A stretch of DNA of 9,024 nt from a virus, in UHGV virus genome UHGV-0305646, one strand, 5' to 3'. Made by a program: the position numbers and the translations under genes. Each line of letters begins with the position of its first letter. Position 1 is the first letter of the stretch. The notes beneath the pieces were generated by a model. That model searched no databases and had not been told where the DNA came from. It was given only the letters and a program-made list of their open reading frames with translations. This document shows, one piece after another, positions 421 to 996 of this stretch.

Positions 421-996
421 TTATTTCACGAGATTGCCACAATTTGTGCAACCTTTCCGCTTGTTAAATTTAGTCGGTATTTTATTGCAACGTACGCATT
501 CTTTATTTTTCTTTACCAGAATGTCGAACATAATCCGTTTCTTATCATTATTGCTAACATATTTTTCATCTTCCTTGGCATTGAAGTCATCTTTTGATTT
601 TATCACTGAAAACAAATGGTTAGCGGGTTGCTGGTTGCCTGTCTTTGATTTAAACATGCTCGACAGTTCGCCATACAAATCAGTTAGGAGTTTATTGAAA
701 GAGTATGATTCCAGATATCGAGATAAATTTTCATCAGTCTTCATGACCAGTGTGTATAAATTAGAAAGCAAGACTATCACTGATAATATCCCTGTGCCCC
801 AAACTAAAAAATCAAAATATTTGGAGCTGTGATCAACCGATGCGTATCCTCCAACTAGGACAGGGAGGGCAAATGATAGATATTGGTTTATTTTTAAAAG
901 TCGTTCGCTTTTTTTGATTTTAGTTTTTAAGTAGTCAGCTGTTCCCTCTGCGTAAAATTTCCTGAGGTCCATTTCTTCATTCGGTTGCATACTCAT
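421..996 (-). CDS. Hypothetical membrane protein: two predicted TM helices followed by a ~100-aa tail with a CxxC-x12-CxxC zinc-ribbon motif
   Basis: Track ORF 421-1002 (193 aa, GTG start); the ATG at 994-996 has an AAGG SD 5 nt upstream. Hydrophobic segments INQYLSFALPVLVGGYASV and FLVWGTGILSVIVLLSNLYTLV; C-terminal CVRCNKIPTKFNKRKGCTNCG. No family recognised. Confidence 0.55.
   Translation of the reverse strand: MSMQPNEEMDLRKFYAEGTADYLKTKIKKSERLLKINQYLSFALPVLVGGYASVDHSSKYFDFLVWGTGILSVIVLLSNLYTLVMKTDENLSRYLESYSFNKLLTDLYGELSSMFKSKTGNQQPANHLFSVIKSKDDFNAKEDEKYVSNNDKKRIMFDILVKKNKECVRCNKIPTKFNKRKGCTNCGNLVK

Follow-up and report, generated by a model that had tools for sequence, protein, structure and literature searches.

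We analysed a stretch of 9,024 nucleotides (nt) from the virus genome UHGV-0305646 (the whole stretch is called the window below), in which two adjacent genes on the minus strand form the subject of this report. Gene 1 (421-996) encodes a protein of 191 amino acids (aa) and gene 2 (218-409) encodes a protein of 63 aa. Both were confirmed as real genes, and homologues of both open reading frames (ORFs) were found at 42-98% identity. The longest ORF of gene 1 begins with the GTG at 1002; RefSeq uses the ATG at 996, and several homologues use the ATG at 990. At the junction, the sequence reads GTGAAATAA-AGGAG-AAACAA-ATG and the stop codon of gene 1 occupies 423-421. An earlier description made without database searches (the sequence-only reading) had placed a strong Shine-Dalgarno sequence and the ATG of the 63-aa ORF 6 nt after this stop codon. 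Both elements are present. However, the 6 nt separate the Shine-Dalgarno sequence from the ATG, and the intergenic gap is 11 nt.

A plus-strand ORF (368-832, 154 aa) had been named as a possible rival. If it were the real gene, or if the region were non-coding, the minus-strand ORFs would be spurious. The reading frame was checked by comparison of the window with four enterobacterial homologues. Substitutions at codon positions 1, 2 and 3 of the minus frame ranged from 22/6/60 to 25/1/81. The plus-strand ORF is long and substitutions concentrate at its third position too, but it mimics a coding sequence because the two frames have their third codon positions in common. The best conserved codon position is position 2 in the minus frame (6 versus 22 and 60) and position 1 in the plus frame, which is atypical. 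Moreover, the plus-strand ORF is interrupted in two homologous loci (L038 and L040), where the longest antisense open stretch is 88-90 aa. Its product has no family and no relatives, whereas the minus-frame product matches a curated family at E 1e-41 and has homologues across phyla. Thus, the minus frame is upheld and we regard the rival frame as vanishingly improbable.

The translation of gene 1 has the layout that the sequence-only reading had proposed: a short N-terminal segment, two hydrophobic helices, a basic tail and a four-Cys ribbon. Counted by hand, the first helix (residues ~36-54) is moderately hydrophobic with a mean Kyte-Doolittle value of ~1.1 and the second (residues ~60-85) is strongly hydrophobic with values of 1.4-1.8; a loop of five residues, DHSSK, lies between them. 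The C-terminal 104 residues contain 17 K, 4 R, 7 D and 6 E (net charge, +8), and the two Cys pairs, C167-x2-C170 and C183-x2-C186, are spaced by 12 residues. An AlphaFold2 model built from an 81-sequence alignment had a predicted local distance difference test (pLDDT) value of 95.1 and a predicted template modelling score (pTM) of 0.86. In this model, helices span residues 5-54 (running into the first hydrophobic segment), 59-84, 87-116, 123-143 and 149-162, and short strands lie at the Cys knuckles after the last helix. Thus, two hydrophobic helices are present both by hydropathy and in the model, as expected of a protein with two transmembrane helices. Because net positive charge flanks the predicted hairpin on both sides and the loop has only five residues, the positive-inside rule argues for a cytoplasmic location of both ends.

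The sequence-only reading could assign no family to this protein from sequence alone. Profile search does give one. The gene 1 product matches NCBIfam TIGR04402 with 143.1 bits (curated cutoff, 70; E 1.1e-41), and residues 7-188 are aligned with positions 2-179 of the 180 profile positions. A precomputed match to PF27874 (Mob_CxxC_CxxC) was present on 13 of 13 close homologues, and the identical gene in Escherichia coli C10, at a 100%-identical place, is named "mobilome CxxCx(11)CxxC protein" by RefSeq. The gene 1 product is a member of TIGR04402 / PF27874, a family that is catalogued but uncharacterised. When 1.84 billion representative proteins were searched with the profile, the family comprised 264 clusters (50% identity) at E <=0.001, nearly all of them 180-200 aa long and aligned over the full length. 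Every one of 81 diverse members has C167, C183 and P174, and at least 90% keep C170, C186, G187, P45, G49, N101 and D143. The four Cys residues of the ribbon are thus conserved among homologues, which agrees with the earlier proposal. The spacing between the Cys pairs is 11 residues in most members and 12 in an enterobacterial subgroup, which includes the window protein. This subgroup is Lys-rich rather than Arg-rich and lacks the usual GMR and VPxSM motifs of typical TIGR04402 members; the length, the helix layout, the four Cys residues and the mobile-element setting are shared. With the enterobacterial alignment as query, no close relatives were obtained from GTDB genomes or from IMG/VR.

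To survey gene 2, one genome per species was scanned with a sub-alignment of typical family members. The scan returned 30 loci, from Bacteroidota, Actinomycetota, Desulfobacterales, Sedimentisphaerales, Zixibacteria, Proteobacteria and others; two partial matches were left out and 28 loci were analysed. An ORF of 61-77 aa on the same strand lies directly downstream of the large gene in 26 of these 28 distant loci. The two exceptions are one locus without a small ORF and one that is cut by the contig end. The gaps between the large and small genes range from -32 to +42 nt, and many are overlaps of 4 or 8 nt. The large-small gene order also recurs in every intact enterobacterial or plasmid locus that we inspected, including the E. 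coli and Rhodococcus plasmids described below. In the 28 paired sequences, all four Cys residues of the large protein are invariant. Furthermore, the pairwise divergences of the two proteins are correlated (Mantel r 0.68, p <=2e-4), as expected if the two proteins travel and evolve as a unit. When the genes flanking the distant loci were compared all against all, no third conserved gene was found near the pair. The idea that the 63-aa ORF ending in CPACGK is the partner of gene 1 is therefore strongly supported by the downstream homologues, the frequent overlaps and the correlated divergence.

The partner family has a recognisable pattern. At the N-terminus it reads v-l-k-G-Y-x-E-L-s-x-x-E-k-x-E and at the C-terminus LGPxxxxxCxxCG[K/R]; the last motif usually stands at the very C-terminus, with 1-3 extra residues in some members. 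The gene 2 product of the window can be aligned with these proteins; L15, C58, C61 and G62 are invariant, and so is G53 in a 30-sequence set. None of 67 partner relatives matched a Pfam family, and they are called "hypothetical" in every source. The model of the partner contains confident helices at residues 3-14 and 17-28 and a weaker helix at 33-47, and the Cys tail is disordered. A folded N-terminus with a disordered tail is the layout of many type II antitoxins. In most members the tail reads P-T-x-x-x-x-C-P-C-C-G-K, which resembles the second knuckle of the large protein, P-T-x-C-x-V-C-G-N-F. As a speculation, this likeness might reflect docking on the ribbon or competition with it, mimicry, or an old duplication.

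Two unusual arrangements of the pair were observed. In one inovirus remnant (L002, 6166-6547), a single large gene is followed by the small gene twice in tandem (63 and 59 aa). In Yersinia enterocolitica (L036 and L037; 8699-9192), the large gene keeps only residues 96-191 and the membrane hairpin is gone, and the 63-aa gene is intact. The small protein is present on 24 Yersinia contigs, and both loci inspected have the truncated arrangement. The loss of the membrane half in Yersinia could hint at selection against the membrane part.

The pair is carried by a filamentous prophage. Pfam and PHROG matches in the window identified gene II (Phage_CRI, G2P_X_C), gene V, coat genes, gene III with a pilus-binding domain, a Zot-like gene I and a secretin, and gene IV has ~80% nucleotide identity to that of IKe. 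Bases 1-123 are an exact repeat of 8452-8574, which gives a period of 8451 nt. The prophage stands in tandem in E. coli C10 and adjoins hipBA in two other strains (1368KP and BH100). UPΦ phages have an IKe-like core, YpfΦ-type genes II and V, h1 and h2 after gene IV, and reverse-strand accessory ORFs that adjoin dif in tandem copies (Shapiro and Putonti, PMC7307601). Because the IKe-like genes, G2P/G5P, the dif junction, the tandem copies and the reverse-strand accessory ORFs fit this description, we assign the window to a dif-integrated UPΦ-type inovirus prophage, probably in tandem. As in other dif-integrating inoviruses (UPΦ, CUSΦ/YpfΦ, CTXΦ), the cargo lies beside the attachment site. The window phage has four reverse ORFs in 8,451 bp, compared with three in the 7,560 bp of UPΦ901, and the cargo pair of the window is not described in PMC7307601.

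Comparison with sibling prophages by blastn placed breakpoints at 204/205 and 1070/1071. Thus, the exchanged segment consists of exactly the two genes and 74 nt upstream. Its G+C content is 0.34-0.36, versus 0.40-0.46 in the flanks, and it contains a candidate promoter element, a perfect TATAAT at 1039-1034, which a fixed-rule promoter scan missed. Among 5426 complete E. coli genomes, 57 possess the prophage core and only one possesses the segment 190-1070. In strain 1368KP, whose prophage is 97-99.5% identical to the window in the flanks and 99.8% in the core, the same slot (L042, 10707-11851) is occupied by a nuclease of the REase_DpnII-MboI type and a DUF6953 protein; PADLOC models that match this nuclease are Aga_Helical-REase (1.3e-34) and PDC-S35 (9e-11). 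In BH100 (L043), a longer segment corresponding to 205-1522 differs, and three unrelated ORFs separate the 60-aa gene of the leftward operon from the phage end. The pair is therefore exchangeable cargo in a dif-proximal slot. The features of the window are collected in Table 1.

Table 1. Positions of the two genes, their cassette and other features in the window.
Feature	Position	Strand	Basis or remark
Gene 1, 191-aa Mob_CxxC_CxxC (TIGR04402 / PF27874) protein	421..996	-	family match; alternative start ATG 990
Predicted membrane hairpin, residues ~36-54 + 60-85	742..891	-	hydropathy, AlphaFold helices 5-54 and 59-84, conserved P45 and G49, sub-threshold SLATT_1 match over residues 20-94
Putative four-Cys zinc knuckle pair, C167xxC170-x12-C183xxC186	439..498	-	Cys conservation; pLDDT 93-97
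Intergenic spacer, 11 nt	410..420	-	AGGAG (420-416) touching the stop codon; 6-nt spacer, then ATG 409-407
Gene 2, 63-aa partner protein	218..409	-	no Pfam family; homologues follow the large gene
C-terminal CPACGK half-knuckle of the partner	221..238	-	family motif CxxCG[K/R]; disordered alone, pLDDT ~50
Two-gene cargo cassette, 866 nt	205..1070	-	blastn breakpoints; flanks 97-99.5% identical to siblings with other cargo
phrog_4174, 140-aa membrane protein, same leftward operon upstream of the pair	1069..1491	-	not part of the conserved pair
phrog_2503, 60 aa, first gene of the leftward operon, divergent from gene II	1580..1762	-	PHROG match
GC-rich hairpin (stem GGCCGCTGCG / CGCAGCGGCC) between cassette and dif-like site	129..188	.	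inverted repeat; candidate
dif-like hybrid site (GGTGCGCATAATGTAGGACTCGTTATGTT)	109..136	+	phage end adjoining the cassette; same XerC-side arm, longer centre
Perfect E. coli dif site, 28 nt	8560..8587	+	28/28 bases; 0/200 shuffles match

Outside this prophage, the pair occurs without a phage in Pectobacterium, Enterobacter and Edwardsiella, and it also adjoins a secretin fragment from a different inovirus. A typical family member (P0054) matched 166 plasmids, of which 142 are from E. coli and 16 from Salmonella, and 154 are predicted to be conjugative; against phage records, the same query gave no match. On a Rhodococcus plasmid, the large gene adjoins a restriction endonuclease and a helicase/DUF1156 pair. 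We also listed 145 genes that flank the distant loci. This raw list contains four integrases, IS1595 transposases, type I/II restriction-modification genes, MADS components, a ThsB-like TIR protein, PifA, DrmMI and AriA. The two ORFs are a gene pair conserved across distant bacterial phyla, and from these comparisons they appear to be a self-contained and horizontally mobile two-gene module.

What kind of effector the large protein may be is suggested by its likeness to SLATT proteins. These are predicted pore-forming effectors; DRT10 defence depends on them, and they are also components of type I CBASS and of a TIR+SLATT system. Of the 81 family members, 46 gave SLATT_1 matches at E <=1 (best, 1.8e-6) and 23 gave SLATT_4 matches (best, 1.4e-5); a few matched SLATT_5 or SLATT_6. 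When the model was compared with BFVD, proteins named SLATT appeared at ranks 1, 4, 6, 8, 13, 17 and 21 with prob 0.96-1.0, and the best fold matches to predicted viral proteins were mostly giant-virus proteins with this name. The comparison with two-helix effectors of defence systems that the sequence-only reading had drawn may thus have some indirect backing, from these SLATT-like signals and from the mobile, defence-rich surroundings of the pair. Like the SLATT effectors of DRT10/UG17 (SLATT-5), type I CBASS and the TIR+SLATT system "Shaseng", the modelled large protein would have a helical hairpin with a very short outer loop and cytoplasmic flanking helices. It shares with them a weak, recurrent similarity to hidden Markov models and fold matches named SLATT, and also a defence-rich or mobile location and tight coupling to a partner gene. 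In contrast to these effectors, the window module has no reverse transcriptase, cyclase or TIR partner, its SLATT scores are below threshold, and its large protein is fused to a zinc ribbon and paired with a 63-aa half-knuckle protein.

We propose, at roughly even odds, that the two genes are a toxin/regulator-like conflict module for abortive infection, exclusion or addiction. This proposal is based on the predicted membrane hairpin with its conserved four-Cys cap, the obligatory partner, mobility, the interchange with nuclease cargo, defence-rich neighbourhoods, and the precedent of SLATT and toxin-antitoxin systems. We give defence a somewhat higher chance than addiction alone. From the sequences and the models, we infer the membrane topology, zinc binding, physical interaction, toxicity, trigger and biological role as follows. 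The gene 1 product would cross the inner membrane as a helical hairpin. Both of its ends would be cytoplasmic, and there its N-terminal helix and three C-terminal helices would form a bundle capped by a Zn(Cys)4 knuckle. Gene 2 would be translated in tandem with gene 1, and the tail of the small protein may bind the cytoplasmic domain of the membrane protein and keep it inactive. Loss of the small protein, or a foreign molecule that engages the basic zinc-ribbon domain, could be the trigger. The triggered hairpins would then oligomerise and permeabilise or depolarise the membrane, so that the cell is arrested. The carrier, a dif-integrated UPΦ-type inovirus prophage, may benefit by abortive infection or exclusion of competing phages, by post-segregational stabilisation, or by both. 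In its most specific form, the idea is that the pair is a widespread, unrecognised anti-phage system: a SLATT-like pore, gated by its own zinc ribbon and by a mini zinc-knuckle protein, that needs no second-messenger or cDNA-producing enzyme and is traded as cargo by filamentous prophages and F-type plasmids, with the prophages using the slot by dif where sibling phages have nuclease-based cargo. We advance this form tentatively, and it may well prove wrong.

Several observations weigh against this interpretation. The window protein scores only 13.3 bits with SLATT_1, for which the cutoff is 41, and 13.7 bits with DUF4231, for which it is 24.7. The Pfam SLATT models reach only 2-3 of the 81 members (SLATT_4, 2/81; DUF4231, 1/81). 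The BFVD fold matches are weak (E 0.02-0.4; template modelling score, 0.46-0.55), and searches of the PDB returned only generic helical bundles and no solved SLATT structure. Because the scores of the window protein are far below threshold and the Pfam models catch few members, we use the term SLATT-like for the large protein and do not assign it to SLATT. The described SLATT systems pair the effector with an enzyme that produces a signal or a nucleic acid, and none is conserved near the family studied here. An association with SMODS, SLOG, TIR or reverse transcriptase was not found, and the small CxxCG[K/R] protein is the only conserved neighbour; the one ThsB-like gene among the 145 flanking genes makes no pattern. 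The models of PADLOC-DB 2.0.0 (PADLOC 2023) matched neither protein at E <=0.1, and no paper on TIGR04402, PF27874 or the family was found in the searchable literature. Finally, on an E. coli IncFIB (F-type) plasmid, the pair adjoins sopAB and an antirestriction gene. These neighbours fit plasmid maintenance or establishment as well as defence.

The plasmid neighbours lead to the strongest of the other explanations, namely a pure addiction module in which a stable membrane toxin and a labile small antitoxin only stabilise the carrying prophage or plasmid and give no phage defence. Two coupled genes with a small, partly disordered partner would suit such a module, and so would its frequency on conjugative plasmids of E. 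coli and Salmonella, with the partition genes sopAB adjoining it. A stabiliser would also be useful to the prophage, as tandem dif-integrated inoviruses can be supplanted or recombine (PMC7307601), and the Yersinia remnant keeps the small gene without the membrane half of the large gene. However, many copies are chromosomal, with restriction-modification, MADS, Thoeris-like and PifA genes as neighbours, and not on a replicon that would require a stabiliser; the pair of Pectobacterium is an isolated one in the chromosome. Moreover, the alternative cargo of the same prophage slot is a restriction-type nuclease. Pure addiction is unlikely in our view but a serious candidate, and it should be mentioned that the addiction and defence roles are not mutually exclusive.

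The basic character of the tail around the ribbon (net charge, +8) raises another explanation: the large protein may be a zinc-ribbon factor that is tethered to the membrane and does not kill. It would bind nucleic acid or protein there and so regulate or assist DNA entry, replication, establishment or anti-defence of the element, with the small protein as a cofactor. The proximity of the pair to an antirestriction gene and sopAB on F-type plasmids would agree with this, and the carriers (an inovirus and conjugative plasmids) pass through single-stranded DNA. Nevertheless, copies that stand alone in the chromosome exist in Bacteroidota, Actinobacteria and others, and no genes for transfer or replication are conserved near them. 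The ~5-residue loop, the conserved residues and the SLATT-like signal in the hairpin fit an effector better than an anchor. In addition, the phage does not need the cassette, because most sibling prophages are without it. We consider a factor of this type quite unlikely. A component of inovirus morphogenesis or of phage lysogeny control is very improbable: although the pair lies in a leftward operon headed by a presumed regulator of 60 aa and encodes a membrane protein, and inovirus assembly occurs at the membrane, the cassette is present in only 1 of the 57 E. coli genomes with the prophage core, unrelated genes replace it in sibling prophages, and the pair is found far from any inovirus gene in many phyla with no matching phage record, so that the morphogenesis role is largely refuted by the distribution of the pair.

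Two known systems resemble the proposed conflict module in organisation. RexAB of phage lambda is prophage cargo that is expressed with the lysogeny regulator and, like the proposed module of the window, comprises a membrane protein and a cytoplasmic partner; depolarisation of the membrane upon infection is its presumed action. Unlike the 63-aa peptide of the window, RexA is a large sensor, and RexB differs from the predicted hairpin in having four membrane helices. MqsR/MqsA is a type II toxin-antitoxin system in which the toxin gene comes first and the antitoxin binds zinc. Here too the genes are coupled, the larger comes first, and the small partner has folded and flexible parts with cysteine pairs that suggest zinc binding. 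However, the toxin of MqsR/MqsA is an RNase, whereas the putative toxin of the window is a membrane hairpin. To our knowledge, there is no sequence or fold relation between lambda RexAB and the window pair, and we know of no homology between MqsR/MqsA and the pair.

The remaining features of the prophage were also inspected. The first gene of the leftward operon encodes the 60-aa phrog_2503 protein, presumed to be the phage regulator. This protein is identical in sibling prophages with different cargo, and its homologues precede the pair in the Edwardsiella locus L040 (77% identity) and in the inovirus remnant L002 (36%). The phrog_4174 gene does not precede the pair in L002, in L040 or in the distant loci. 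The GC-rich hairpin beyond the cassette is the probable terminator of the leftward operon; a consensus terminator scan missed it because it has a 12-nt loop and a short T-run. No RNA family of Rfam was found in the window. On the plus strand after the secretin gene, ORFs at 7862-8170 (102 aa, phrog_4115) and 8288-8521 (77 aa, phrog_5435) are, by position, probably h1 and h2 of the UPΦ phages. Two CxxC pairs, CDRC and CQHC, are present in the 77-aa protein itself. A convergent 83-aa gene of the Enterobacter and Yersinia loci was considered as a counterpart of this 77-aa ORF, and no match was obtained. Directly 3' of the secretin gene, at 7788-7836, lies a 20-nt inverted repeat (90% complementary, 9-nt loop), which could be a terminator, or an origin or packaging hairpin. 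At 4406-4555, gene III contains fifteen-base repeats of the GGTGGTGAGTC type (GGGES), the copy number of which varies between strains. As a result of this difference, the prophage period is 8451 nt here and 8490 nt in E. coli C10.

The large gene itself is not new, since its product belongs to a catalogued, unstudied family. In contrast, the sources that could be searched seem to contain no description of the conserved partner, of the SLATT-like hairpin or of the exchange of the pair as cargo in the dif-proximal slot of UPΦ-type inoviruses. There is also a gap in annotation: the partner ORF is present but unlisted in the gene tables of both plasmid records inspected, the E. coli IncFIB plasmid (L045, 6541-6753) and the Rhodococcus plasmid (L044, 5518-5733), and 142 E. 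coli plasmids carry the large gene. If the pair is a plain addiction module, it would be a new toxin-antitoxin-like family and would give a function to a catalogued family of unknown function. If instead gene 1 encodes an effector that kills through the membrane and senses with its own zinc ribbon, under the control of a 63-aa regulator, the pair would be among the smallest self-contained systems of the SLATT kind. The activation of SLATT effectors was called a central open question in the DRT10 study, and a two-protein system without an enzyme partner would make this activation easier to study. Integrating inoviruses, which are best known for toxin cargo, would then also swap conflict modules in a defined slot by dif.

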